Shown here: in pieces, positions 7,151-58,204 of the stretch
Position numbering within the stretch: the first letter of the stretch is position 1
How the letters are laid out: the number at the start of each line of letters is the position of its first letter
Sequence record: OZ346201.1
DNA length: 64,000 nt
Direction: 5' to 3' (one strand)
Source of the DNA: a phage
Notes under the pieces: generated by a model
The model's input: only the letters and a program-made list of their open reading frames with translations
Told to the model about the DNA's origin: nothing
Database searches by the model: none
Made by a program: the position numbers and the translations under genes

Positions 7151-7701
7151 TGGAAGCTTTCGAAAAAGTTTTTTCTGATCTTGAAACAACCATTGCTAAG
7201 CTTGTCAAGGTTGCCACAGGAAGAACTGTAGTTTTGGCAGAAAGCTCTACCATACCGAAGCCGGAAGGTGAGTTTGTGCTTTTACAAACCTTGGCGATCA
7301 ATCCCACCACTTGGGAAGATAATGAGTTTCAAGATGCGGAGGGTAATGCTTACGTCACCCACAGCTACACTGTTACTTATCTGTTAACAGCTTATCGTGG
7401 CAGGGCATATGCTGCACTTAGCAGAGTATTGCAAGCAATAAACCTTCCAATGTTTTATGACAAGTATTTCCCTCTGGGATCGTGCTTTGCCTACTCTAAC
7501 AATTCAACAATCTCACCTCAAAGAGTGCCGTTGAATAAGCAGACGTATGAAAATAGAGCCACTGTGATGCTGACATTTAACGTAAGGTTTGTTGAAACAG
7601 ACATTGGGGCTTTTGAGGATCTTCAGGGAATTAAGGCTGAAATAACCACACACTTCCCTTCACCCAATTCTGGTAAAGCGGTTACAGACAGTGGTCAGTA
7701 A
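7150..7701 (+). CDS. putative tail completion / neck protein
   Basis: 183 aa, start overlaps upstream stop (TGATG); directly upstream of the sheath gene. Confidence 0.35.
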   Translation: MEAFEKVFSDLETTIAKLVKVATGRTVVLAESSTIPKPEGEFVLLQTLAINPTTWEDNEFQDAEGNAYVTHSYTVTYLLTAYRGRAYAALSRVLQAINLPMFYDKYFPLGSCFAYSNNSTISPQRVPLNKQTYENRATVMLTFNVRFVETDIGAFEDLQGIKAEITTHFPSPNSGKAVTDSGQ

Positions 7702-7711
7702 TCGTTATAAT
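7682..7711 (+). promoter_or_regulatory. possible promoter for sheath/tube genes
   Basis: TTACAG-N18-TATAAT overlapping the end of the previous gene, followed by a short hairpin GTGTAAT-G-ATTACAC. Confidence 0.2.
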
Positions 7712-7773
7712 TGTGTAGTGTAATGATTACACTGCGTGTTTGATATCCGTGCACAGATATTAAGAGGAAACAA

Positions 7774-9150
7774 ATGCCATATTTAGATAAAGTGGTAGAT
7801 GTTACAGTTAACCTCGGAACCCAGCCTATTGACACTGTAGGTTTCGAAACTCCCCTGTTCATCGCTATCCACAACAACTTTACTGAGCGAGCTCGCGTAT
7901 ATGCAGAGCTGGATCAGATGGTGGAAGATGGTTTCGCACAAGGCTCTGCAGCGTATGAGTTTGCAGCAAAAGCTTTTGGCGGTGTATTCCCTCCACAATA
8001 CGTTATGATCGGCAGACAGGCCAAAGAAAAGACCACTGTAGATTTTAAAGGTATTGCTGCCGCAGCTGATACCGATGTCGTAATGACTATTGCAAAAGGT
8101 AGCTACAATACCTCTTTGATAGTCCCTATCTCTGGTGGAACAGCTGCAACTCAGATTGCAGAGTCAATGAAGACTAAAATCGAAGCAGATGATAACTTGG
8201 ACGATATCACTGTAGAGGCTGCTGATGGTGTTATCACCATCACTGGTGACTGTACTGTTGGTTACCATACTGGTAACTATACAATCAAAAATATCGCCAA
8301 TGCTGAAAAACCTTCTACAGTAGTTGATAAGATCAATGCTGAGCGTGACAATTGGTACTTCCTGTGCCATGAAGACCACACCGACATTGAAGCATGTGCT
8401 AAGTGGGCTCAGGCTAACTACAAGCTGCATGTCTACTCTACTGCAGAAGATGTGACTGGTAAAGATAATAACATCGCCACCAAACTGAAAGCTGCACAAT
8501 ATGACAGTGTCGGCATGTACGATCCTCGTGCAGATAAGGACTTCCCGGAGGGTGGTATCATAGGTGCTATGGCATCCAACGATCCGTCTTACGGCGACAG
8601 CTTGCACTTAAAACAGATGCCAGGTGTGATTGCACCGTCTCTGACTTTAACTCAGCGTATGGCTATTTGGGAAAACCACGTTAACTTCTACAGAATGATT
8701 AACGGTGTTGGCGCTTTCTGGGAAGGTAAGTGTGCTTCAGGTCAGTATGCAGACGCTATTCGTTTTGCACACTGGATCAAGTTCAGATCTGAAGAATCTA
8801 TGTTTGGGTACATGCATCGTCGCTCCAACATGGGTTTAAGCATGAAGATGTCTGATGATGATCTTCCGGTTATCAAGTCTGTTCTGATGAACAACCCAAT
8901 CAACACTGGCATTAAGAATGGTGCGATCCTGACAGGTTTTGACGAAGACAACAATGTGTTCTACGACCCGATCATCACAGTTCCTAAACGTGCAGAAATC
9001 CCAACCAATCAGTTGGCTGCTCGTGTTCTGGAAGGTGTGAAAGTGGAACTGGTGTATAACAACGCCCTACACTTCGTTCGTATCCGGATCAACGTCCTTC
9101 TGGACAAAGTTGGTTCTAAATCCACCAATGCTGTTGCAATGACTGAATAA
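7774..9150 (+). CDS. tail sheath protein (putative)
   Basis: 458 aa, RBS AGAGGA; followed by a 157-aa tube-sized gene, a chaperone pair and the tape measure, the canonical contractile-tail order. Confidence 0.55.
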   Translation: MPYLDKVVDVTVNLGTQPIDTVGFETPLFIAIHNNFTERARVYAELDQMVEDGFAQGSAAYEFAAKAFGGVFPPQYVMIGRQAKEKTTVDFKGIAAAADTDVVMTIAKGSYNTSLIVPISGGTAATQIAESMKTKIEADDNLDDITVEAADGVITITGDCTVGYHTGNYTIKNIANAEKPSTVVDKINAERDNWYFLCHEDHTDIEACAKWAQANYKLHVYSTAEDVTGKDNNIATKLKAAQYDSVGMYDPRADKDFPEGGIIGAMASNDPSYGDSLHLKQMPGVIAPSLTLTQRMAIWENHVNFYRMINGVGAFWEGKCASGQYADAIRFAHWIKFRSEESMFGYMHRRSNMGLSMKMSDDDLPVIKSVLMNNPINTGIKNGAILTGFDEDNNVFYDPIITVPKRAEIPTNQLAARVLEGVKVELVYNNALHFVRIRINVLLDKVGSKSTNAVAMTE

Positions 9151-48481: not shown

Positions 48482-48745
48482 TCAGAAACCCTCTAAAAAG
48501 CTCTTGTAGAAAACAATCTCAGTATCCACACCAGTCACAATCTTGTCGTTCCTGATTTCATCGGTAAGATAGGTGTCAAAACGCAGAACCTGTGTGGTGT
48601 TGTCACACATCCACTCAGCTGTGACCATTGCGAAAATCTTAGCATCTTCATTATCTGGTGTGAATGTTACCACCTCACCGCACTTAAACTTTTCGATAGG
48701 CTGAGTGTTAGCTTTCGGTTCTGCGATAGTGATTTTTGTGGTCAT
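48482..48745 (-). CDS. small protein, tandem paralogue 3 of 4
   Basis: 87 aa; shares G(T/E)VV.F..D...D......V...FD....LP....VTE.D..I.ILGE pattern; start overlaps upstream stop (TAATG). Confidence 0.5.
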   Translation of the reverse strand: MTTKITIAEPKANTQPIEKFKCGEVVTFTPDNEDAKIFAMVTAEWMCDNTTQVLRFDTYLTDEIRNDKIVTGVDTEIVFYKSFLEGF

Positions 48746-49008
48746 TATTCTCCTCCTTCTTTTGAATAGCTTGTCTCTCCAAGGATGGTAATTTTGGTGT
48801 CAAGCTCTGTAACTTTCATGTTTGGCGGCAGATCGTACAACTCATTATTTTCTAAATCGAACCCCCACACACAATGTTCTCCTGTTTTGACAATCATAAC
48901 TATGTTTTGAATGCCGTCTCCGTCGCAACTTACCACGGTCCCACACGGAAAACTGTCTGCACGCTTTTTGTTCTTCACCTTAGAATTGAATACAATGCTG
49001 GTAGCCAT
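48745..49008 (-). CDS. small protein, tandem paralogue 2 of 4
   Basis: 87 aa, same family; TAATG overlap with the upstream gene. Confidence 0.5.
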   Translation of the reverse strand: MATSIVFNSKVKNKKRADSFPCGTVVSCDGDGIQNIVMIVKTGEHCVWGFDLENNELYDLPPNMKVTELDTKITILGETSYSKEGGE

Positions 49009-49271
49009 TATTGTTCCTCCACCATAACTTCGCCAAGAATTTCTATGCAGGCATCCATTTCTGTAACAACCAAACTGTGAGGTAGTTCTACAAACACCTT
49101 TCTGAACAGGTCAAATACCCCAACATATATGTTTGCAGGATGTGATTTTACAACAAGTGCTGTATTCACATCCCCAAGTTCATCAACAAACATCACCACA
49201 GTGCCCGGAGCTACTGAGGACAGATACTTCTTAGTTTTACGGTTTGATGCAAATTTTAACTCTGTTGCCAT
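49008..49271 (-). CDS. small protein, tandem paralogue 1 of 4
   Basis: 87 aa, RBS GAGAGGAGG; same family. Confidence 0.5.
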   Translation of the reverse strand: MATELKFASNRKTKKYLSSVAPGTVVMFVDELGDVNTALVVKSHPANIYVGVFDLFRKVFVELPHSLVVTEMDACIEILGEVMVEEQ

Positions 49272-49286
49272 AAATAACCTCCTCTC

Positions 49287-50747
49287 TTACTTAGCGTACT
49301 CGATTAATTCCACAGTTTTCCCAAAGCTCGGGATATAATTTTTATTATACCCCTCAGTGAGGACCCATAGAGTATCGTACTTTTTCCACTTGTTGTCAAC
49401 AACCTTTTGTTCAAAGTTATGCTCAAAGTATAGGTCGGTCAGGACGATGACATCTTTTGCATTAGGTATGTTGGCATCCAGATACTCGAACACGCAAGCA
49501 GCTGTTGTGCCCCATGTTGAGTGGACCTCATAGTTGATCATCTCGTCTATGTTGCCGCGAGTGTATACTTTAACCTCTCCAACCTCAGTTGACCAACAGA
49601 ACATTGTAACCTTAAACTCTTTATACAGATTGCACAATCCGGTGATTTCATTGAACATTTTCTTTAAAGTTCTTTGAGAGATCGAGCCAGAAACGTCTAA
49701 AGCCACCACAATATCTATAGTGTTTTCCGGATTACGACCAGGAACAATAACGTGCTGGTTCTTGTTTATAGCCCCAACTTTTCGCATTGTGCTGGTCAAA
49801 GACCCAGATCGGCGACCAGGTTTTCTGTAGGTCAGTTCGGCCTTTCTTTTAGACAACATACGTTGCTTAATGATGTCTATATAGTTGATTACAGGCTTAC
49901 CTCTGTTCTTGACAAACTCACGCACCGCCTCAGGGCAACGGCCTCCGGACGCTTGCATTGCTGCCTCCAGCATATCACCAGAGTCCTGCATGGCCTGATC
50001 TTTATCAGATTGGCTGATTACAGGTTGTGGCTGATCATACCCCATAGCCTTTCCAAGATTATCACTGGTGCCACCGTTCCCACTCATGTGATCATCGGTT
50101 TGTCGCTTATCACTTTGAGAGTTCTCACCTTTACCGTTCTTACTTTTACCGTTATTCTGATCTCTTTGCTTATCAAGAACTGCATAAACGTTCTCAGCAA
50201 TCCATCCATGAAACTTCATGTCGCAGTAGCAGCTGGCTAAGAAGCCAAAAGGCTTACCTTTCATGAACGTAGTGCTTTTCCCCTTCGGGAAGAAAACACA
50301 AGGAGGTTTGCTAAAGTCAACCACAAGGCCTGTGTTGATAACGTGATCACAAGCAATATTGAACAGTTCCGGCTCAAAGCTTTTACCACGGACTAGGTGA
50401 TCACAGATAATATGCCCCACCTCATGTGACAGAAGGAAGGCCACCTCTTTCACAGATTTTGGGGAATAGAAAACTTCAGCCATCTCAAACTGCTCGTCAG
50501 TTAGAGAAGCCTTAAGAATAGCCTTGCGTTCATCAGCCAATCCCATAATGAACTCAGGACTGTAATAGATGCGTTTATGGTCGGTTGCCATGGTGGAGCA
50601 CCATGTGTGGTTTTCTACGAACTGCAACCCTGACAGTAGTGTGCCATAAAACGGCAGCTTTTCAAGGAGATACATACGTGCAGCCTGCAACATTCTCAGG
50701 GCATCATCTTTCTGCGAGGCAATGATTTCTGAACTTCTGCTATCCAT
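49287..50747 (-). CDS. metallopeptidase-like / von Willebrand factor A domain protein
   Basis: About 486 aa from the second ATG (MDSRSSE...) after GGAG; the track ATG at 50768 lies in a hairpin loop. N-terminal HExxH (SHEVGHIICDH); C-terminal VWA with MIDAS motif (VVALDVSGSIS). Confidence 0.6.
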   Translation of the reverse strand: MDSRSSEIIASQKDDALRMLQAARMYLLEKLPFYGTLLSGLQFVENHTWCSTMATDHKRIYYSPEFIMGLADERKAILKASLTDEQFEMAEVFYSPKSVKEVAFLLSHEVGHIICDHLVRGKSFEPELFNIACDHVINTGLVVDFSKPPCVFFPKGKSTTFMKGKPFGFLASCYCDMKFHGWIAENVYAVLDKQRDQNNGKSKNGKGENSQSDKRQTDDHMSGNGGTSDNLGKAMGYDQPQPVISQSDKDQAMQDSGDMLEAAMQASGGRCPEAVREFVKNRGKPVINYIDIIKQRMLSKRKAELTYRKPGRRSGSLTSTMRKVGAINKNQHVIVPGRNPENTIDIVVALDVSGSISQRTLKKMFNEITGLCNLYKEFKVTMFCWSTEVGEVKVYTRGNIDEMINYEVHSTWGTTAACVFEYLDANIPNAKDVIVLTDLYFEHNFEQKVVDNKWKKYDTLWVLTEGYNKNYIPSFGKTVELIEYAK

Positions 50748-50756
50748 TAAAACTCC

Positions 50757-50775
50757 AGAAGGGGCCATTGGCCCC
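50757..50775 (-). promoter_or_regulatory. intergenic hairpin (attenuator or terminator candidate)
   Basis: AGGGGCC-AAT-GGCCCCT between the stop of the 50781..51575 gene and the VWA gene start. Confidence 0.3.
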
Positions 50776-50780
50776 TGTCA

Positions 50781-51575
50781 TTATTTAACGTGTTTGAAAA
50801 TACCTGCCAACTCGGTCATTGTCATGCGGGTGGTCTTCATAAGATCTGTCATAGCTTTCTCCATAATTGGAGATACTACCATAAAGTTTCCTTTAGTGAA
50901 ACCTTTATTCCAGTCGGTCACCAACAGGGGTTTAAGTCCAGCTCCAAGACGTTCACCAGTTAAAGCACAGCATTTGCGAATATACGAACTCTTAAATTGG
51001 CTGAACGACAGATCAACTTTCATACCTACATCGTAGAACGTTTGACAATAGAAAGTGTAAGCTTTGGCAATCTCAACATCATCAGGTAGTGCAGGAACCT
51101 CTTCTGTAAGCTCCTCTTCGACCTCCTGAGTCTCTTTTTCCTCTTCATGCACCTGTTGCGTCATTTCTTCAATCTCTTCTGTGATAGGCTCGTTTACAAT
51201 GTCGGAAATGTGCTTCTTGGGTGCACGATAAGTAACTTTAGACATCGGTAGCATATCTTCCTCCTCTTCTTCGTCAAAGAGTGCTAGTTTATCCTCTTCC
51301 GTTCCATATTGCAAGATGAAATCTTCAAAAGTATAATCACCTTTCAATTTCTCCATACGCTCTTCGCTCAGGTGGAGCATCATCTGCTGGACAATTTTTC
51401 GATCAGTTTCGTCTTTAATCAAGACTGCAGTCTTTTTATCTACCAGACAGTCCTTTAGAGAGTTGCATCTCAATCCCACCACACAACAGTTATCAACCGC
51501 ATAAGGACCTTCATCATCTATCCGCTCCAGAGATGGGTAGAAAGGATTCCCCAGCCCGTTTTCATCTGTGTGCAT
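50781..51575 (-). CDS. hypothetical protein with Cys-rich N-terminal domain and acidic C-terminal region
   Basis: 264 aa; first 23 codons lie in the left palindrome arm; internal LPMSKVTYRA identical at 27 nt to the start of the 52791 gene; preceded internally by GAGGAGG. Confidence 0.45.
   Translation of the reverse strand: MHTDENGLGNPFYPSLERIDDEGPYAVDNCCVVGLRCNSLKDCLVDKKTAVLIKDETDRKIVQQMMLHLSEERMEKLKGDYTFEDFILQYGTEEDKLALFDEEEEEDMLPMSKVTYRAPKKHISDIVNEPITEEIEEMTQQVHEEEKETQEVEEELTEEVPALPDDVEIAKAYTFYCQTFYDVGMKVDLSFSQFKSSYIRKCCALTGERLGAGLKPLLVTDWNKGFTKGNFMVVSPIMEKAMTDLMKTTRMTMTELAGIFKHVK
51222..51248 (-). repeat. 27-bp inverted-repeat copy 1 (CCGATGTCTAAAGTTACTTATCGTGCA)
   Basis: Exact 27-nt identity, in inverse orientation, with 52788..52814. 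Confidence 0.6.
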
Positions 51576-51760
51576 GTCAAAAGGTATAAGGGTATAGTCG
51601 CATACTCCATCTCCTAAAAGTTTTTTACCAAATATTTGGTAAAAAACTTTTAGGAGATGGAGTATGCGACTATACCCTTATACCTTTTGACATGCACACA
51701 GATGAAAACGGGCTGGGGAATCCTTTCTACCCATCTCTGGAGCGGATAGATGATGAAGGT
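51507..51760. repeat. 254-bp perfect palindrome at the divergent junction
   Basis: Arms about 127 bp, centre ...TTACCAAATATTTGGTAA... at 51633/51634; the ORF-track N-terminus of the leftward gene equals the mini-ORF I translated from the right arm (MHTDENGLGNPFYPSLERIDDEG). Confidence 0.7.
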
Positions 51761-52502
51761 TATTGAGCGTAGATTGGTATCTGGGTCTGATAAGTGGACA
51801 TATTTAGATAATGAAGGACACACCTATTCCAATGGGTATGTCGATATAAAAGTAGAATACGCGGTATCATACCGCCGGAGCGGTTCTGTAACTTTCAACT
51901 TCTCTGGAGGTTTTCGATCTCTGGCTACCTCACCTTTTGTTTCCTCAGAGGAGAAGTATGAGCTGCCATTTCTTTGGATGATGGCTAACGCGACAGGAAA
52001 AACCCCCGTTAGCATCCGAGTAAAATACAACTACAACGGATCTAGTAAGATCTATGCCGAAAGTGTCTCAGCAAGTTTTTATTTTGTGATGGGGGATGGA
52101 ATCCTCAAACATATAAAGATGTGCGATATGCATGATGTTATAAATGAAGTGACTGATAAGAATGTTCTAGTGAAAGACCTCAACAATTTTTATACACCCG
52201 GAGACTATTACGTCAGCCGTCCACTGTGCATCTTTAATGCCGCACACCCTCTAGGTGAGTATTTGATCGCCAATAGCGATATTGCCAATAACCGCTTCGA
52301 GGTAGCAAGAGTTCAGAATGAGGTATTGACATCTTGCAAGAGCGGTGATAAGTTTACCGAAGAAGAGATGGGTGTTTTAGAAATGATGGGATATAAGTGT
52401 AGCCTTTGGGTAGATGAGGTGTTCAATGATTGCATCTATGGACAGGATATTTACCCATTAAAGAAGTATACTGATTCCAGTTTAATTTACGCGGAGATTT
52501 GA
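51750..52502 (+). CDS. hypothetical protein
   Basis: 250 aa; ATG lies in the last 11 nt of the right palindrome arm, RBS GGAGCGG. Confidence 0.45.
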   Translation: MMKVIERRLVSGSDKWTYLDNEGHTYSNGYVDIKVEYAVSYRRSGSVTFNFSGGFRSLATSPFVSSEEKYELPFLWMMANATGKTPVSIRVKYNYNGSSKIYAESVSASFYFVMGDGILKHIKMCDMHDVINEVTDKNVLVKDLNNFYTPGDYYVSRPLCIFNAAHPLGEYLIANSDIANNRFEVARVQNEVLTSCKSGDKFTEEEMGVLEMMGYKCSLWVDEVFNDCIYGQDIYPLKKYTDSSLIYAEI

Positions 52503-52504
52503 CT

Positions 52505-52777
52505 ATGATGAAGTCATGTGGTAGTGTATATTATGTTGGTGAGAATGTTCAGGCAGATAGTGTGTGGAAATCCATTAAGTCCACCACCGATGATGCCTTT
52601 CTGAGCGGGTTATGTTTTCCCAGCCCAGGGGACACTCTCCCTTACCCTGGAGATTTTGTTGTCAACAAGATGGACGGTTATACCGTGTGCCTGATGGTTG
52701 AAAAAATCTTTTTAGACACTAGACACAATCACCGTCTTGTGTTAAAATTTCAAGAATGTAAAATGACAATTGCCTAA
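52505..52777 (+). CDS. hypothetical protein
   Basis: Track ORF starts at a TTG at 52499; ATG 52505 after GGAGA is preferred. Confidence 0.35.
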   Translation: MMKSCGSVYYVGENVQADSVWKSIKSTTDDAFLSGLCFPSPGDTLPYPGDFVVNKMDGYTVCLMVEKIFLDTRHNHRLVLKFQECKMTIA

Positions 52778-52787
52778 GGAGACCTTG

Positions 52788-52814
52788 CCGATGTCTAAAG
52801 TTACTTATCGTGCA
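52788..52814 (+). repeat. 27-bp inverted-repeat copy 2 (CCGATGTCTAAAGTTACTTATCGTGCA)
   Basis: Exact match to the reverse complement of 51222..51248; contains the ATG and first 8 codons of the 52791 gene. Confidence 0.6.
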
Positions 52815-53147
52815 GCTATTTACTGCAATGAACACCCAATCAATAATGATGGTCACTGCCTTTTTAAAGAAAATCAATTGGGCTGTATTGTCCTCCCTGA
52901 TGAAGGGGAAGGTTATCTGATTGCGTTGACAGGGTTTGAACCTGAAGCTCTGGAAGCCAATCTTGACTACCTGGTAGAGGAGGGTGCTGCAGACCTGGTT
53001 GCCAATGGCCTCTCCATAAGCCTTGACGAAGTGGAGCGCTTCATGGGCAATTACCGTGTAGTGCGTGAGTTTACTATCGAGGTGGAAACTCCCGAGTGGG
53101 GTAGCCATGAAACTAATGCCGAAGAAAAAGAAGAGGAGGTAGAATAA
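52791..53147 (+). CDS. small acidic protein
   Basis: Track ORF starts at a TTG at 52770; ATG 52791 after AAGGAG is preferred. Strongly acidic (C-terminal EEKEEEVE). Confidence 0.45.
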   Translation: MSKVTYRAAIYCNEHPINNDGHCLFKENQLGCIVLPDEGEGYLIALTGFEPEALEANLDYLVEEGAADLVANGLSISLDEVERFMGNYRVVREFTIEVETPEWGSHETNAEEKEEEVE

Positions 53148-53404
53148 TGAAAGTGCAGATCTTGACTAATGCCGAGAAGATGTTTATTGAAGATACACCT
53201 TTTGAAGCTGGTGAGCTACAGTTCGTTTATTTTGTTGACTTAGATAAGGTGTTTCCTGCACTGAATCTAGGTTTGGATGAAGTTCCTCATAAGGTTTTGT
53301 GCCAAGTTGTTCGTGCCTTAGCGGCAGAGGGGGAGTTCCACACCCTTCAAGATATCCAGACCTACGGGTATCTTGAACTACAACGAGAAGAAGAGGTGGA
53401 CTGA
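53147..53404 (+). CDS. small acidic protein
   Basis: 85 aa, RBS GGAGG, start overlaps upstream stop. Confidence 0.4.
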   Translation: MKVQILTNAEKMFIEDTPFEAGELQFVYFVDLDKVFPALNLGLDEVPHKVLCQVVRALAAEGEFHTLQDIQTYGYLELQREEEVD

Positions 53405-53406
53405 TA

Positions 53407-53787
53407 ATGGCTCAGTGGAAGACAACAGTTGACCTTCATGATCAGTGGTTAGGACGCATCACTGAAGACGGGAAGCTAGTGGAGTGGGACAATAAGCATG
53501 TTAGCGAGTTGGCAAGTATTGTGGCTGGCAAGTTACGCTCCAAGTTCCCTGAACAACTGGATCCTGATAGTTCAAAGTTCGATCCTGAGTTAGAGGATGT
53601 TGTATACTACTTCGACACCGTTGATGACTACGACGCGTGGTTTGCAGCACGGGAGCTTTACCCACAAGGCTCTGCTATGCGCCAGATGGAAGAAGATTAT
53701 CCTCCGTGTGAGCAATTCAATAGTGCAATGACTTGCCTCTATGATTGGGCAGATAAGAACCTTGTCTGGATTCGGACTGCATTTTAG
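53407..53787 (+). CDS. small acidic protein
   Basis: 126 aa, Asp/Glu/Trp-rich. Confidence 0.4.
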   Translation: MAQWKTTVDLHDQWLGRITEDGKLVEWDNKHVSELASIVAGKLRSKFPEQLDPDSSKFDPELEDVVYYFDTVDDYDAWFAARELYPQGSAMRQMEEDYPPCEQFNSAMTCLYDWADKNLVWIRTAF

Positions 53788-53831
53788 TGGGCAGGAATGG
53801 CGGCAAGGATGCTGCTTAAGGAGTAGTAGAG

Positions 53832-54101
53832 ATGTTATACCAGCAATATGAACTTCGTGCAGAAAAAGAGTTAAATTTTGACAAAGATATTCACAGATAT
53901 TATTATGGGAAAGTTAGAGGGCAAGCAAGAAAGTGTACTCCAACACTCTTTTATGCCAGCAGACGACTAGCGCCAGAAGAGGCAACAGCAGAAAGGGTTG
54001 CGTACAACTGGAGAGTCACGTATGATATTGACAGATTCGATGTGATATCTGTTTTGGAAAACTTTGAAAACACTTACACACAAGTAGAGGACTTTTACTA
54101 A
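53832..54101 (+). CDS. hypothetical protein
   Basis: 89 aa, RBS AAGGAG. Confidence 0.4.
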   Translation: MLYQQYELRAEKELNFDKDIHRYYYGKVRGQARKCTPTLFYASRRLAPEEATAERVAYNWRVTYDIDRFDVISVLENFENTYTQVEDFY

Positions 54102-55285
54102 TGTCAAGAAACGTATTCGAAAGTGGTCAAATCACTGTCCGTGAGTTGCCAGCTATTATTCAGTTTGCCCAACGTCATAGCCGATCTGTCCTAATTTTGG
54201 GACCAATGGGTGTGGGTAAAAGCCAGGTGATGAAGCAGATCGCTGATAATATGTTCGGTGAGCGAGATGACAACCTTGTTGACGTGCGACTGTCAGATAA
54301 AGATCCTGCCGACTTATCTGGGCTACCTATCCCTGTAGAAGCGGATGGAACTACACGTACAGTGTTTGCAATTCCAGAATTTTGGCCTGCGGATCCTGAC
54401 TGGAGCGGAATTATCTTTCTGGATGAGCTCACTCATGCAGATAACTACCTGCAAAAGGTTGCAATGCAAATTATGCTTGACCACAAGTGCGGCACCTATG
54501 CATTCCCTAAGGGTTCTGTTTTTGTGGCTGCGGGTAACCGTTCTACAGATGGTGCGGTTCTTTCGGCGCTCGAAGCCCCTCTGGCTAACCGTTTTATCAT
54601 TGTAGAGGTTACAAGCAATGCAGAGGTGTTTATTGAGGACTACGCATTCCTCAACGGGGTTCACTCCTCTGTAATTGGGTATCTGAAAAGAGTTCCATCA
54701 GCTATTGATAATTATGAGGCTATGGCTGAGATTAATTGTCCATCTTTTGCCACACCACGATCTTGGGTTGCTGCATCTGACATCTTGCACGATTTTGACA
54801 GCGGTATTATTTCTGACGCTATGGCCCGTGTTCTTCTACAAGGTGCTATTGGTCACACTGCAGCGGTAGAGATCTGGACTTACCACACCAAGAAACGTAA
54901 TTTACCGGAAATCGGTCGGATTATGGCAGGTGGCTGCAAAGAATACGTAGGTCCTAAGCAGCCAGACATTTTGTGGATTCTTGGATCTGAAGGTTGTATC
55001 GCTATTCGCAATATGATGGAAAATGCAAGTATCTCCGACGAAGATCTTGTTAGCTGTGTGGCAAACTTCCTCGATTTCCTTTGGGAAAATTTCAAGGACG
55101 AGAACCGAGATTTTGTATTCTCAGTCTTTATGGCGATGATGAAACCTAACGCCTTAGGAAATGCCTTGCTTATCGGTAAAGGGCGTGACAAGATTGTTGC
55201 TCAGTTGATCAAAGCATATCCAAACCTGATGAAGATTGTAAAAGAGTTTGGTGAAGAGTTTAGCGCCATTTTGGCTAAAGCTTAA
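54101..55285 (+). CDS. MoxR-like AAA+ ATPase
   Basis: 394 aa; Walker A GPMGVGKS, Walker B IIFLDELTHA, and VAAGNRSTDG...ALEAPLANRFIIVEV typical of MoxR/AAA_5-type ATPases. Confidence 0.65.
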   Translation: MSRNVFESGQITVRELPAIIQFAQRHSRSVLILGPMGVGKSQVMKQIADNMFGERDDNLVDVRLSDKDPADLSGLPIPVEADGTTRTVFAIPEFWPADPDWSGIIFLDELTHADNYLQKVAMQIMLDHKCGTYAFPKGSVFVAAGNRSTDGAVLSALEAPLANRFIIVEVTSNAEVFIEDYAFLNGVHSSVIGYLKRVPSAIDNYEAMAEINCPSFATPRSWVAASDILHDFDSGIISDAMARVLLQGAIGHTAAVEIWTYHTKKRNLPEIGRIMAGGCKEYVGPKQPDILWILGSEGCIAIRNMMENASISDEDLVSCVANFLDFLWENFKDENRDFVFSVFMAMMKPNALGNALLIGKGRDKIVAQLIKAYPNLMKIVKEFGEEFSAILAKA

Positions 55286-55724: not shown

Positions 55725-56225
55725 GTGAAAATTAAGATCTTTGCTATTATTTTGAGCGCACTTTTATCGCTGCCTGTTGTTGCAGCACCAAAACAAAAAG
55801 TATATCATACTTGCAAGCCATCAGATACTAAGGAAAACATTCTGGCATGCAATATCTACAGGGAAGCTAGAGGAGATGGCACGATGGGTATGCTGGCATC
55901 TGGGTTTGCCACACTAAACAGGAAATCCCACCCTAAATACCCAGACACTATAAGAAAGATTGTCTACCAACCTAACCAGTTTTCGTGGACAAACCACGGC
56001 AAAACTTTTAAGGTGACAGAAAAAGATTCATGGGATCACGCTAAAAGTCTTGCAAAGATGCTTCTAAAGGTCTATAATAACAACCATGTTGCATACATGG
56101 CTATGGACATAACAGGTGGAGCAACACACTACCATACAACCAAAGTACGACCGAAATGGGCAAAAAAGATGCAGAGGACAGCTCAATTCGGGAGCCATAT
56201 CTACTACAAGGAGCGCAATAAATGA
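55725..56225 (+). CDS. secreted cell-wall hydrolase (SleB/CwlJ-like), endolysin candidate
   Basis: 166 aa, GTG start after GGAG; N-terminal signal peptide MKIKIFAIILSALLSLPVVAAP; NIYREARGDG...YQPNQFSW region resembles the Hydrolase_2 family. Confidence 0.5.
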   Translation: MKIKIFAIILSALLSLPVVAAPKQKVYHTCKPSDTKENILACNIYREARGDGTMGMLASGFATLNRKSHPKYPDTIRKIVYQPNQFSWTNHGKTFKVTEKDSWDHAKSLAKMLLKVYNNNHVAYMAMDITGGATHYHTTKVRPKWAKKMQRTAQFGSHIYYKERNK

Positions 56226-58204
56226 TCGTAAACAGTAATGAAACTAAAGCGGTACTAACCGGGAATATGGAGGTCACCAGGGGCTCAATTTCTCTGAACA
56301 AAGAGACTTTTGGGCTAATCATTAAAGGGATTTACGAAGATAAGGTGCTGGCAAGCTGCCGTGAACCAATCTTCAATGCCGTGGACTCCCATGTTGAGTC
56401 TGGACGGGGTGATGTACCGATCATTATTCACTCTCCTACAGACCTTGAACCATACTTCTTTGTGCAGGACGTTGGATTGGGCATGTCAGAAGAGATGGTC
56501 CGCAACACTTTCATGAACCTCGGGGAGTCAACCAAGCGCAACAGCAACGCTCTGGTAGGTAATAAAGGTGTTGGTTCAAAGGCTCCGTTCAGCATGGTGG
56601 ACACTTTCGATGTTATCAGTGTGCACAATGGTGTTGAAAGCACATATCTATTGTTCTTGGATCAGGGTATCCCAAACGTTACCAAGATCCGTGAGCGGAA
56701 GACTGAAGAGCACAACGGGGTAAAAGTTCAGTTCCATGTTAAGAAAGAGCATGTCCTGAAATATCGCACTGCTATTGCATCGTGCTTACGCTATGCGAAG
56801 TTTCCGTTCATCGTCACCGATCCTATGACCAGTAAGATGTTAGAAGGTGACAAGGTTGAGGCACAGTATCATTACGAGAAGGATGGCTGGAAAATGACCA
56901 TCCTGAAAGGTTATACCAGTTCTGATGAGAGCCGTGTTGTGATGGGTCACCAACCTTACCGCTCCAAGTTCCTGGAGACATTGACCGATTACCCTGCAAT
57001 CTGCGTGGAAATTCCTATTGGGGATTGCAATATTAACCCTGGGCGTGAATGGACCATAGAGGGCCATGACGACGGTGGATTCCAGGATCGCCTGGAGGCC
57101 TTTGTCAAAGAAGGTATACGTCTTCGCGGGGCAGAAGTTGTTGCAGAACTGGAGACGGCAAAAACCTCCGCAGAAGCACGTGAAATGATGAAGAATAGTG
57201 GAGTGTTCGGACACATCTTCGGCAAAAACTTTATGTGGAACCGTTGGGAAGAAACAGGGCTTGGCGACTTAGGCGATTGTGAAATTTTCGCTGGCGGCTT
57301 AAATAAAGGCCGCATAGGCTATGCTCGTTACGGAAAGTCGGAGTTCTTACGAGGTGTATACCTTGTATTTAACGACGGAGACGGCAAATATAACCGGAAT
57401 AAGTGTAACTACTTAAGCGAGATCACCGGACGCAACGTTTTCTATTGCCGGAACACGGATCTGGTGAAAGAGTTTAAAGAGGCGGCACACCATCCGTTCT
57501 TTGCAGATACGGTCAAATTGTTATCGGAGCTTCCACGCCGACCTGCGAAGAAAGGTGAAACCAAAACTCGATACGAGCCAGGCTACTGGGTTAAGAAGCT
57601 TAGAGAGGATGGCTACTTCCATCGTGAGCGCCTCACGAAGGCAGAGTTCAAGAAGATTAAGCATTGCATCCCTTATGAGGGGGATATCCAACGGGGAAGC
57701 TGCTGGCTGGGCCAGATGAGTAACATCTACCAGCAAAATTATGACCGTGTGCGTGCGGCACTCCAGATTCCTGAAGGGGAAGACCTGTACCTGGTATCAG
57801 AATCCCGTCTGCTTTGGACTGATCCTGATTGCCAGTATGTTACAGAGAAAAATGTGGAACATTTGTTGAAAGAGGACGCCTGGAAATTCTTACTGACTCG
57901 CGCAGCAAATGAAACTTCATATGACAACCTGTATAGACAATTAGGGAAAATTATCCCCATGCAGGATTTTGGAAATTATCGGCCACATTTCCACAAGTGG
58001 GAAGGTAACACCGCGTGGAAGCACAGTGAGCTAAATCATCGTGCCAAAATCTTAATCGCCAACCGGGTTAAGTGCGGGAAGGCCTATATTGCAAGATTGG
58101 AAAAGAAATATCCACTTTTGAAGCATGTGGGCTTGAAATATTGGGACACTTCTGCTATGATTGAATACCGTGAACTGATCGATACAAAGAATAACATCAA
58201 ATAA
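56222..58204 (+). CDS. rIIA: rIIA-like protein (GHKL-type ATPase fold)
   Basis: 660 aa; N-terminal region matches T4 rIIA from memory (GVGSKAPFSMVDTFDVISVH versus T4 [20 protein letters not shown]); immediately upstream of rIIB. Confidence 0.65.
   Translation: MIVNSNETKAVLTGNMEVTRGSISLNKETFGLIIKGIYEDKVLASCREPIFNAVDSHVESGRGDVPIIIHSPTDLEPYFFVQDVGLGMSEEMVRNTFMNLGESTKRNSNALVGNKGVGSKAPFSMVDTFDVISVHNGVESTYLLFLDQGIPNVTKIRERKTEEHNGVKVQFHVKKEHVLKYRTAIASCLRYAKFPFIVTDPMTSKMLEGDKVEAQYHYEKDGWKMTILKGYTSSDESRVVMGHQPYRSKFLETLTDYPAICVEIPIGDCNINPGREWTIEGHDDGGFQDRLEAFVKEGIRLRGAEVVAELETAKTSAEAREMMKNSGVFGHIFGKNFMWNRWEETGLGDLGDCEIFAGGLNKGRIGYARYGKSEFLRGVYLVFNDGDGKYNRNKCNYLSEITGRNVFYCRNTDLVKEFKEAAHHPFFADTVKLLSELPRRPAKKGETKTRYEPGYWVKKLREDGYFHRERLTKAEFKKIKHCIPYEGDIQRGSCWLGQMSNIYQQNYDRVRAALQIPEGEDLYLVSESRLLWTDPDCQYVTEKNVEHLLKEDAWKFLLTRAANETSYDNLYRQLGKIIPMQDFGNYRPHFHKWEGNTAWKHSELNHRAKILIANRVKCGKAYIARLEKKYPLLKHVGLKYWDTSAMIEYRELIDTKNNIK

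Follow-up and report, generated by a model that had tools for sequence, protein, structure and literature searches.

The window analysed here, the whole 64,000-nucleotide stretch of sequence record OZ346201.1, derives from an rV5-like coliphage (Vequintavirus) and carries two genes of interest on opposite strands. The minus-strand gene (49287-50747) encodes a 486-aa zincin-VWA protein homologous to rV5 gp12 and N4 gp25, hereafter the partner, and the plus-strand gene (54101-55285) encodes a 394-aa MoxR-class AAA+ ATPase homologous to rV5 gp4 and N4 gp24. Both open reading frames were confirmed, with a spacing of 3.33 kb (50768 to 54101) when the partner frame is extended to its upstream ATG at 50768 to give 493 aa. 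This first ATG falls within a GC hairpin; translation probably begins at the second, at 50747, where a GGAG ribosome-binding site is found and which yields the length of 486 aa annotated in relatives.

The partner consists of an N-terminal putative metallopeptidase domain, a low-confidence linker that is disordered in the predicted model (pTM 0.60), and a C-terminal VWA domain with a MIDAS metal site. Both domains scored above the curated Pfam cut-offs, as DUF2201_N (4.4e-28) and the VWA-like DUF2201 (6.1e-11). In translation, the HEVGH zinc-binding/catalytic motif of the putative peptidase lies at 50412-50426 on the minus strand, and the DVSGS motif, representing the DxSxS part of the MIDAS, at 49683-49697 on the same strand; the site is completed downstream by GT (residues 420-421) and TD (residues 444-445). 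The H, E and H of HExxH and the full MIDAS were invariant across 25 partner homologues with identities down to 22%, and the invariant glutamate favours catalysis over mere metal binding. The HEVGH helix gave weak profile matches to the minigluzincin MJ1213 (E 0.025), BepA and HtpX, the N-terminal domain matched solved zincins at sub-threshold level only, and H124 or D141 may serve as the third zinc ligand. In related phages the protein is annotated as either a “putative metallopeptidase” or a “VWA-like domain containing protein”.

The ATPase is 100% identical to the protein named “MoxR ATPase” in the rV5 GenBank record. Its Walker A P-loop, GPMGVGKS (54200-54223, plus strand), carries the invariant residues G37, G39, K40 and S41, and its Walker B residues D108 and E109 (54422-54427), within IIFLDEL (54410-54430), are likewise invariant, as are the sensor 1, Arg-finger and sensor 2 positions (N146, R164 and R220). 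In the AF2 model (pLDDT 86), the AAA+ core bears a helix-2-insert hairpin (residues 75-90) and a pre-sensor-1 hairpin, and the region C-terminal to it is entirely helical. The protein fell below every Pfam AAA cut-off (AAA_5, 16.7 bits vs the 22 needed), and the MoxR assignment thus rests on transitive homology and predicted fold: homologues at 34% identity bear AAA_3/AAA_5, the domains found among homologues being PF07726, PF07728 and PF20030 (AAA_3, AAA_5 and bpMoxR), the top 15 matches of a Foldseek search of the PDB were all NorQ (including NorQ-NorD VWA complexes) or CbbQ2, and the best match of a PDB profile search was Midasin (1.9e-10). These lines of homology and modelling place the ATPase in the MoxR/AAA_5 class. 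The initial annotation had read both protein architectures from the letters alone, and both readings held; the outcomes that would have spoken against them, an ATPase of the clamp-loader or packaging type and a partner lacking conserved metal ligands, were looked for and were absent.

Between the two genes lie the heads of two divergent units. The leftward unit, which also carries the partner gene, is opened by a 5'-truncated rV5 gp11 homologue (50781-51575, minus strand) that lacks its first 61 codons, having 264 aa vs 325 aa in LL12 gene 011, with a PHROG match beginning at profile position 62. It is annotated as an “Srd-like anti-sigma factor”, a claim made for rV5 gp11 in PMC3606486; a weak match to “decoy of host sigma70” was obtained, and a Pfam search gave no support. 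The rightward unit, leading to the ATPase, is opened by a 5'-truncated rV5 gp10 homologue (51750-52502, plus strand; 250 aa vs 299 aa in LL12; PHROG match from profile position 50), annotated as an “alpha 1-3 fucosyltransferase” without domain support, its Pfam search returning zero matches. Five small plus-strand reading frames of 92, 125, 85, 126 and 89 aa follow (52499-54101), the last abutting the ATPase start. Homologues of the five were not found in N4 or uncultured phages, and only the 89-aa frame has one, a weak one, in the Seunavirus 4MG. As for the tandem array of 87-aa proteins that had been grouped with the pair, gene sizes in the two other Vequintavirinae genera examined place no such array beside the partner gene, which does not support the grouping.

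A perfect 254-bp palindrome (51507-51760) lies where the two units meet, its 127-nt arms (51507-51633 and 51634-51760) meeting with zero spacer. All 118 related phage records searched lack it, and none of them covers 80% or more of a 501-bp probe. Relative to these phages, 414 bp have given way to an inverted copy of 51517-51632 (116 bp), with a 10-bp microhomology, TGATGAAGGT, at the right junction, and the lost 414 bp held the bidirectional promoter region together with the 5' end of each of the two flanking genes. The palindrome had been regarded as the element around which the pair is arranged; it is real and perfect, but represents a rearrangement peculiar to this sequence and not an organising element. 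The ATPase and partner genes are not co-transcribed in the window, and their shared promoter region is missing. The best sigma-70-like match of the region, TTGACA-17-TATTAT (11/12; 53878-53906, plus strand), is a consensus match about 200 nt upstream of the ATPase start that is conserved in LL12, the total of such sites in the region being not above shuffled expectation; this candidate promoter could drive the ATPase without the deleted bidirectional one.

In Vequintavirinae, the pair is split onto two divergent units starting at one bidirectional promoter region, and among the genomes examined this layout was seen only there and in the closest uncultured relatives; the pair is nonetheless retained in three Vequintavirinae genera at 44-53% identity. 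Usually the two genes are direct neighbours on one strand, with the ATPase first, as in N4, uncultured phages, a cyanophage and the bacterium Sulfurivermis fontis. Taking the ATPase as anchor, the partner was present in 70 of 80 viral loci, and in nine of the ten loci without it the sequence ends within 200 bases of the ATPase frame; taking the partner as anchor, the ATPase was present in 79 of 80. Both genes were found in every one of the 71 bacterial loci with enough upstream flank. The association is far beyond chance and, on this genomic evidence, identifies the two proteins as functional partners, as had been proposed initially. Neighbours of the module include rIIA, dCTP deaminase, thymidylate synthase and a 5'-3' exonuclease.

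The further suggestion that such a pair is not a characterised phage module does not hold for the pair as such, which is already known from rV5, N4-like phages and jumbo phages. N4 gp24 (AAA ATPase) and gp25 (vWFA protein), which belong to the 14-gene core of N4-like phages (Schitoviridae), are homologous to the window pair (hhalign E 9e-37 and 3.3e-52) and share its domain architecture, including HExxH and MIDAS, as well as its position in a non-structural part of the genome with a rIIA-like gene nearby. The N4 genes, which are middle transcripts (PMC4193335), are adjacent, co-oriented and read by N4 RNAPII, whereas those of rV5-like phages lie on divergent units with sigma-70-like promoters. 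At an identity of about 21-28%, the rV5 proteins are the longer: some 40 residues are inserted in the partner after the opening strands of its peptidase domain, and the helical C-terminal part of the ATPase is extended. Iyer et al. (2021, Viruses 13:63; PMC7824862) described the same architecture in group 2.2 jumbo phages, where a MoxR ATPase is paired with a vWA co-chaperone carrying a metallopeptidase at its N terminus, and suggested, on the model of p618/p892 from the Acidianus two-tailed virus, that it acts in virion assembly; rV5-like phages differ in their split layout and their genome of about 137 kb, which is not of jumbo size. Homologues of both window proteins are also present in Rak2/121Q-like jumbo coliphages. 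Bacterial operons of an AAA_5 ATPase and a DUF2201_N/DUF2201 protein, such as that of S. fontis (AP018724), constitute the same two-gene unit in the same order; phage profiles detect both members (E about 1e-70 for the ATPase and about 1e-115 for the partner) at an identity of about 22-25%, and the genes there lie on a cellular chromosome near those for thioredoxin, ferrochelatase and Lon.

In other MoxR systems the VWA partner lacks a peptidase domain. NorQ-NorD and CbbQ-CbbO, of the MoxR CGN subfamily, share 16-22% identity with the window pair; NorD and CbbO serve defined metalloenzymes (cNOR and Rubisco), and about 150 residues of C-terminal helical sequence in the phage ATPase have no counterpart in NorQ and CbbQ. 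RavA-ViaA of E. coli, cited initially as the precedent, likewise pairs a MoxR-class ATPase with a VWA protein from an accompanying gene, but ViaA has no zincin domain, no RavA-specific domain or family match to the window ATPase was found and RavA lay outside the top sequence and fold matches, leaving it as a distant analogue only. The sole viral MoxR-VWA pair with experimental data is that of the archaeal Acidianus two-tailed virus (ATV), in which the MoxR ATPase p618 binds tail proteins as well as the VWA protein p892, which stimulates the ATPase (PMC4124505). Compared by description, p618 is a major virion component with a part in extracellular tail growth, and p892, unlike the phage partner, has no peptidase domain.

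Overall, the two genes are likely to form a client-remodelling module of a MoxR ATPase and a zincin-VWA partner. The steps may be pictured by analogy with the solved MoxR-VWA machines NorQ-NorD, CbbQ-CbbO and Midasin, a finger-in-pore and twisting model having been put forward for NorQD (PMC13036017). The ATPase would form a hexamer and grip the VWA domain via its helix-2-insert pore, the MIDAS metal would capture an acidic residue of the client protein, and ATP-driven twisting would then remodel the client, either exposing or positioning it for cleavage by the fused zincin or gating the zincin itself. From gene position and consensus promoter matches we infer early or middle timing for the pair, and our best guess, a tentative one, is that the client is a non-virion phage or host protein of the early to middle phase of infection.

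Ranking second, and a serious though doubtful contender, is the proposal that the pair, as a chaperone, folds head or tail components or assembles them while the fused zincin trims structural proteins as a maturation protease. The jumbo-phage proposal and the analogy with p618 binding p892 and tail proteins both speak for it, as does core-gene status in N4-like phages, which fits an essential morphogenetic role. It is also favoured by the gene neighbourhood, because N4-like roseophages encode some virion proteins near gp24/25, while the 32-kDa virion protein gp17 of N4 is encoded just upstream of the pair and an Hsp20 gene directly precedes it in the cyanophage S-TIM61. Against this, both genes are promoter-proximal in early units of rV5-like phages, beside Srd-like and rII genes and far from the structural module (genes 27-81), and the N4 pair sits amid replication and nucleotide-metabolism genes. 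Moreover, the main text of the rV5 paper does not name gp4 or gp12 among the virion proteins it lists, p618 being by contrast a major component of the ATV virion, and many phages with similar virions do without the module.

An unlikely reading is that of a host-takeover or counter-defence effector, in which the MIDAS would recognise a host protein that the ATPase-driven zincin cleaves or dismantles early in infection. A component of defence, transcription or proteostasis would be a candidate target. The early or middle gene position is consistent with such a role, as is the placement of the partner gene directly after the Srd-like anti-sigma gene in one unit of rV5-like phages, with rIIA/rIIB, a known counter-defence pair, nearby both there and in N4; the module also occurs in bacterial chromosomes and therefore can act on cellular proteins. 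Counter-defence genes, however, are usually variable accessory genes, whereas this pair is core and conserved across diverse phages, and no PADLOC defence-system model matched it.

Less probable still is a MoxR-VWA chaperone for metal-cofactor insertion or enzyme activation in the manner of NorQD, CbbQO and CobST, acting on a phage or host metalloenzyme with the HExxH domain as a metal-binding or auxiliary module. The closest solved structures, NorQ and CbbQ, are indeed enzyme activators or metal inserters, nucleotide-metabolism enzymes are frequent neighbours and the S. fontis copy adjoins a ferrochelatase gene, but the invariant HExxH glutamate suggests catalysis, no conserved third gene was found alongside the pair, and no one candidate client enzyme is common to all module-bearing phages, the metabolic gene sets of N4 and rV5 being widely different. 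Finally, the notion that the genes are functionally unrelated, with an ATPase of another AAA+ class (clamp loader, packaging or Clp-like) lying near the partner by coincidence, might draw on the opposite strands, the 3.3 kb spacing, the sub-threshold Pfam matches and the single-sequence searches that returned only P-loop-level matches (ClpB/ClpC and p97), yet it is effectively refuted by the near-perfect co-occurrence in both directions in phages and bacteria, the place of MoxR proteins at the head of the fold and profile matches, with clamp loaders far down, and the homology of both proteins to the adjacent N4 gp24/gp25.

The remodelling module is the reading to be preferred, and the genes in the window represent the rV5 version (gp4 and gp12) of a two-gene module that is widespread, being conserved in hundreds of large lytic phages, with carriers that infect E. 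coli, Pseudomonas, Roseobacter, Synechococcus and Bacillus.

The 6-kb region carrying the two genes was found to be 97-99.5% identical to its counterpart in more than 100 rV5-like coliphages of the genus Vequintavirus (PMBT16, A51.2, Murica, LL12, etc.). The ATPase (54101-55285, plus strand, 394 aa) is the protein designated "MoxR ATPase" in the rV5 record DQ832317, at 100% identity, and its partner (49287-50747, minus strand) is labelled in relatives as either a "putative metallopeptidase" or a "VWA-like domain containing protein"; in rV5 numbering they are gp4 and gp12, respectively. The two open reading frames (ORFs) lie on opposite strands where the initial annotation had placed them, with 3.33 kb between them. 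The true start of the partner is likely the ATG at 50747, which has a GGAG ribosome-binding site and yields the 486 aa annotated in relatives. The first partner ATG (50768) falls within a GC-rich hairpin (AGGGGCC-AAT-GGCCCCT, 50760-50776) between the stop of the gp11-like gene and the partner gene, and it may serve in RNA processing, stability or attenuation. Sixteen unannotated "Campylobacter phage" records (e.g. MG065635 and MG065654, host C. jejuni) share 98-99.7% identity with rV5-like phages of E. coli, suggesting mislabelled or contaminating phage in these deposits.

The partner was described from the outset as an HExxH module joined to a VWA domain with an intact MIDAS, and this description is borne out. 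It matches Pfam DUF2201_N ("putative metallopeptidase"; 4.4e-28, 99 bits against a cut-off of 23) and DUF2201 ("VWA-like"; 6.1e-11, over the curated cut-off), with no other Pfam match. Its translation contains HEVGH (50412-50426, minus strand; H115, E116, and H119) and the DxSxS signature of the MIDAS as DVSGS (49683-49697, minus strand). Across alignments of 21-25 partner homologues, down to 22% identity, H115, E116, H119, H124, and D141 are invariant, as is the whole MIDAS (D358, S360, G361, S362, G420, T421, T444, and D445); H124 and D141 are the candidates for the third zinc ligand. In the AlphaFold2 (AF2) model (pLDDT 81), the N-terminal domain is helical, and a disordered linker (208-235) joins it to a C-terminal alpha/beta domain with the Rossmann-like fold of a VWA domain. 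A search of the PDB with the single sequence returned no match; the family profile matched the integrin alpha-X I-domain (1.7e-5), and the HExxH helix gave weak profile matches to minimal gluzincins and M48 peptidases. A literature search on DUF2201 found nothing relevant. Clustered at 50% identity, the family numbers 5,480 representatives at an E-value of up to 0.001 and at least 1,107 at up to 1e-10. It corresponds to phrog_1314, and wrong names for it are widespread in the records of relatives, namely "HNH endonuclease", "anti-sigma factor", "DNA repair ATPase", or "homing endonuclease". The first of these, being the PHROG name of both phrog_1314 and the gp11-like family phrog_3118, was rejected; Pfam sees only DUF2201_N and DUF2201 in the partner and nothing in the gp11-like protein.

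The class of the ATPase was less readily settled. Single-sequence searches of the PDB, NCBIfam, and Pfam gave matches at the P-loop level only (ClpB/ClpC, p97, and AAA families below cut-off), so that profiles and a predicted fold were needed. Every Pfam AAA model falls below its cut-off for this protein: AAA_5 scores 16.7 bits against a cut-off of 22, and AAA_3, the MoxR model of Pfam, is absent. Homologues at approximately 34% identity (E ~1e-44) do bear PF07726, PF07728, and PF20030 (AAA_3, AAA_5, and bpMoxR), marked "weak". Walker A and B are intact, and G34xxG37xG39K40S41, D108, E109, N146 (sensor 1), R164 (the arginine finger, in PLANRF), and R220 (sensor 2) are invariant in 24 homologues. 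A helix-2 insert together with a pre-sensor-1 beta-hairpin marks the AAA+ clade that includes MoxR, dynein/midasin, the chelatases, and McrB. In the AF2 model of the ATPase (pLDDT 86, pTM 0.82), helix 2 is followed, before the Walker B strand, by a predicted hairpin (75-90), and a short one (128-135) precedes the sensor-1 strand. When this model was compared with the PDB by Foldseek, ranks 1-15 were taken by NorQ (including NorQ-NorD VWA complexes) and CbbQ2 (E 6e-8 to 4e-6; target-normalised TM 0.57-0.65), with clamp loaders, Clp, and MCM beneath them. NorQ and CbbQ2 are MoxR proteins that act with VWA partners. The best PDB match of the 24-homologue profile was to the AAA domains of Midasin (E 1.9e-10). 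Profile, predicted fold, and structural ranking are thus all consistent with the MoxR type first proposed, and none points to the unrelated clade that had been named beforehand as the contrary outcome. The coupling of the gene to one for a VWA-domain protein, described next, also fits the class.

The two genes are partners, as judged by their co-occurrence in both directions and in viral and bacterial loci alike, which upholds the functional pairing first put forward. The partner-anchored locus scans were run with the narrower partner alignments (A4 and A5), the broad one (A3) being too divergent. Among 80 viral contigs encoding a relative of the ATPase, a DUF2201 gene lies immediately downstream on the same strand in 68 (gaps of 14-550 nt, plus one overlapping ORF pair) and 3.6-3.8 kb upstream on the opposite strand in two; nine of the 10 contigs with no DUF2201 gene stop within 200 bases of the ATPase ORF. 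Conversely, 79 of 80 partner-anchored viral contigs carry the ATPase, 66 of them adjacently, eight on the same strand 0.7-2.4 kb away, and five divergently. The 80 bacterial loci came mainly from sulfur-oxidising Gammaproteobacteria; the ATPase is present in every one of the 71 whose upstream sequence is long enough, and in Sulfurivermis fontis the pair sits within an ordinary chromosomal context. When 50,697 phage genome records were searched by tblastn, 813 yielded the ATPase and 621 the partner, and the host profiles of the two sets matched (Escherichia 214/211, Pectobacterium 26/26, and Cronobacter 17/17). The pair is found in Vequintavirinae, where every genome examined carries it, in N4-like phages, in PA5oct-like and Rak2/121Q-like jumbo phages, in a cyanophage, and in Bacillus phage G. 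No conserved third gene was seen: between the small flanking ORFs of rV5-like phages, 4MG, an Erwinia phage, N4, and uncultured phages, no similarity was detectable except for the 89-aa ORF, which matches 4MG gp100 (E 0.001).

The layout in the window, on opposite strands and 3.3 kb apart, departs from this majority, the ATPase-then-partner order on one strand being adjacent in 68/70 ATPase-anchored and 66/79 partner-anchored viral loci. Three genera share the divergent arrangement, at 44-53% protein identity: Vequintavirus, Seunavirus (4MG), and Henunavirus (Erwinia phage pEa_SNUABM_55). In the Vequintavirinae genera compared, the leftward unit from the divergence point comprises the gp11-like gene, one or more small genes, and the partner, and the rightward unit comprises the gp10-like gene, several small genes, and the ATPase; in a CB7-like contig further removed from them (L008), the two genes are adjacent. 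Because nearly all other loci are adjacent, the simplest reading of the split is as a derived state in Vequintavirinae, and the retention of both genes after it supports a functional link between them.

The divergence point in the window coincides with a perfect, spacer-less 254-bp palindrome (51507-51760; junctions against LL12 at 51634/51635 and 51750/51751), around which the initial annotation had supposed the pair to be organised. The window and LL12 are collinear to 51634 and again from 51751 on; 414 bp of LL12, present in all relatives, are swapped for a 116-bp inverted copy of 51517-51632, with 10-bp microhomology at the right junction. Gene 11 thereby lacks its first 61 codons and gene 10 about its first 49, and the spacer between them, with the bidirectional promoter region, is gone. 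The palindrome occurs in none of 118 related phage records and is therefore either a private fold-back deletion or a library or assembly artefact, lying outside the design of the module. The truncated 250-aa gp10-like product is absent from the records, and the 264-aa gp11-like product appears elsewhere only through a different choice of start in phage Alma, where the locus is intact.

If real, the palindrome would strip the shared promoter from both units. In LL12, a consensus scan of the 142-bp spacer between the divergent units picked out facing sigma-70-like sites, not enriched over shuffles, from which we infer that one early control region probably drives both genes. The best sigma-70-like match of the region (11/12; 53878-53906, plus strand) lies in an 89-aa ORF just upstream of the ATPase, is conserved in LL12, and could still serve the ATPase once the shared promoter was lost.

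Just downstream of the ATPase are a cell-wall hydrolase (Hydrolase_2; 55725-56225, plus strand) and an rIIA homologue (phrog_612, HATPase_c_3; 56222-58204, plus strand). The leftward unit continues, directly after the partner, with three tandem ORFs for 87-aa paralogues (48482-49271, minus strand), also present in LL12 and Alma. Going by gene sizes, this array is not evident in the corresponding place in Seunavirus 4MG or the Henunavirus Erwinia phage, and its supposed connection with the pair was not substantiated. The gp11-like gene (50781-51575, minus strand; 7495-8472 in locus L001), which precedes the partner in every Vequintavirinae genome examined, was termed an Srd-like anti-sigma factor in the rV5 paper (PMC3606486). 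Its acidic middle has a weak PHROG match to a "decoy of host sigma70", and its N-terminus has weak matches of the endonuclease VII type. Neither the full-length gp11-like nor the full-length gp10-like protein has a Pfam match; the former family (phrog_3118) is labelled "HNH endonuclease", and the label "alpha 1-3 fucosyltransferase" carried by the gp10-like gene (51750-52502, plus strand) was discarded for want of Pfam support. PADLOC returned no defence-system match for the ATPase, the partner, or the two genes between them. In cyanophage S-TIM61 (locus L251, 3024-5659), an Hsp20 gene lies immediately upstream of the pair and ThyX downstream, the former hinting at a proteostasis context for the module.

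The RavA-ViaA pair had been offered as the precedent. A RavA-type ATPase consists of an AAA+ domain plus a LARA domain. Neither window protein matches the RavA, ViaA, or LARA families in Pfam or NCBIfam, and RavA and ViaA are missing from the best PDB sequence and fold matches of the pair, so membership of that system was rejected. The closer counterparts are gp24 and gp25 of phage N4, to which the ATPase (hhalign probability 99.9, E 9e-37) and the partner (probability 100, E 3.3e-52), respectively, are homologous. In N4, the two genes are adjacent and a few genes upstream of an rIIA-like gene, whereas the window pair is split; this is a layout variant and no argument against the homology, and the proximity of rIIA to the pair in both may be remnant synteny. 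Both gp24 and gp25 are among the 14 core genes of N4-like phages and belong to middle transcripts (PMC4193335, PMC2784036), and a module of this architecture was described in jumbo phages by Iyer et al. (PMC7824862). Given this homology, the core status, and that description, not only the kind of module but these very genes had already been recognised, with rV5 gp4 annotated as a MoxR ATPase, and the novelty claimed for the pair falls. A literature search for MoxR with rV5 found no paper; in the CRISPRi-ART paper, EdH4 and N4 figure solely through capsid and rII targets, the module goes unmentioned in a phage Tn-seq preprint and in a preprint on the core genome of nucleus-forming phages, and a proteomics paper on an O177 Vequintavirus makes no mention of either protein by the terms searched.

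The domain content and the pairing can be read directly from the genomes; the complex, its activities, and its client are proposed here by analogy. A finger-like extension of the VWA domain into the ATPase pore is seen in NorD and Midasin. In NorQ-NorD, the finger enters the pore formed by the helix-2 inserts, and, as ATP is hydrolysed, the VWA domain is twisted against a second point of attachment (PMC13036017). Following NorQ-NorD, CbbQO, and Midasin, a hexamer of the ATPase would grip the VWA domain of the partner, whose MIDAS would bind an acidic residue of the client, and ATP-driven motion would then either gate the fused putative zincin or remodel the client so that the zincin can cleave it.

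As to when such a machine might act, gene context tentatively favours a pre-late, non-virion role, on the grounds that the pair belongs to a probable early unit beside the putative Srd-like anti-sigma gene and rIIA, that N4 reads its homologues as middle genes, that nucleotide-metabolism genes are frequent neighbours, and that gp4 and gp12 are missing among the listed rV5 virion proteins. Following closely, as a possible but somewhat less probable reading, is a part in virion assembly, which Iyer et al. proposed for jumbo phages together with proteolytic processing, citing p618/p892, the MoxR/VWA pair of Acidianus two-tailed virus; this precedent, the presence in roseophages of virion protein genes close to the pair, and the Hsp20 neighbour in a cyanophage all speak for it. 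More specific than the pre-late role, and unlikely as it stands, is the proposal that the module is an ATP-gated, MIDAS-targeted, site-specific protease used before assembly by rV5-like, N4-like, and many jumbo phages, either to cut or take apart a host component that is universally conserved or to mature a non-structural phage component.

No new entity is reported here, the initial annotation having been correct on domains and pairing and wrong on novelty. The by-products are an explicit link between rV5 gp4/gp12 and N4 gp24/gp25, evidence of a split layout departing from the adjacent one of the majority, and the correction of "HNH endonuclease", "DNA repair ATPase", and "anti-sigma factor" as names for the partner family. 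If the protease proposal is true, the module would be a new class of phage-encoded regulated protease, co-expressed with an Srd-like anti-sigma gene for host takeover in rV5-like phages, and its near-universal retention would be explained by an essential takeover step rather than by morphogenesis. The identity of the client would extend the MoxR-VWA chaperone paradigm to a protease-coupled variant and fill a gap in the biology of the therapeutic phage groups concerned, namely rV5-like, N4-like, and jumbo phages.
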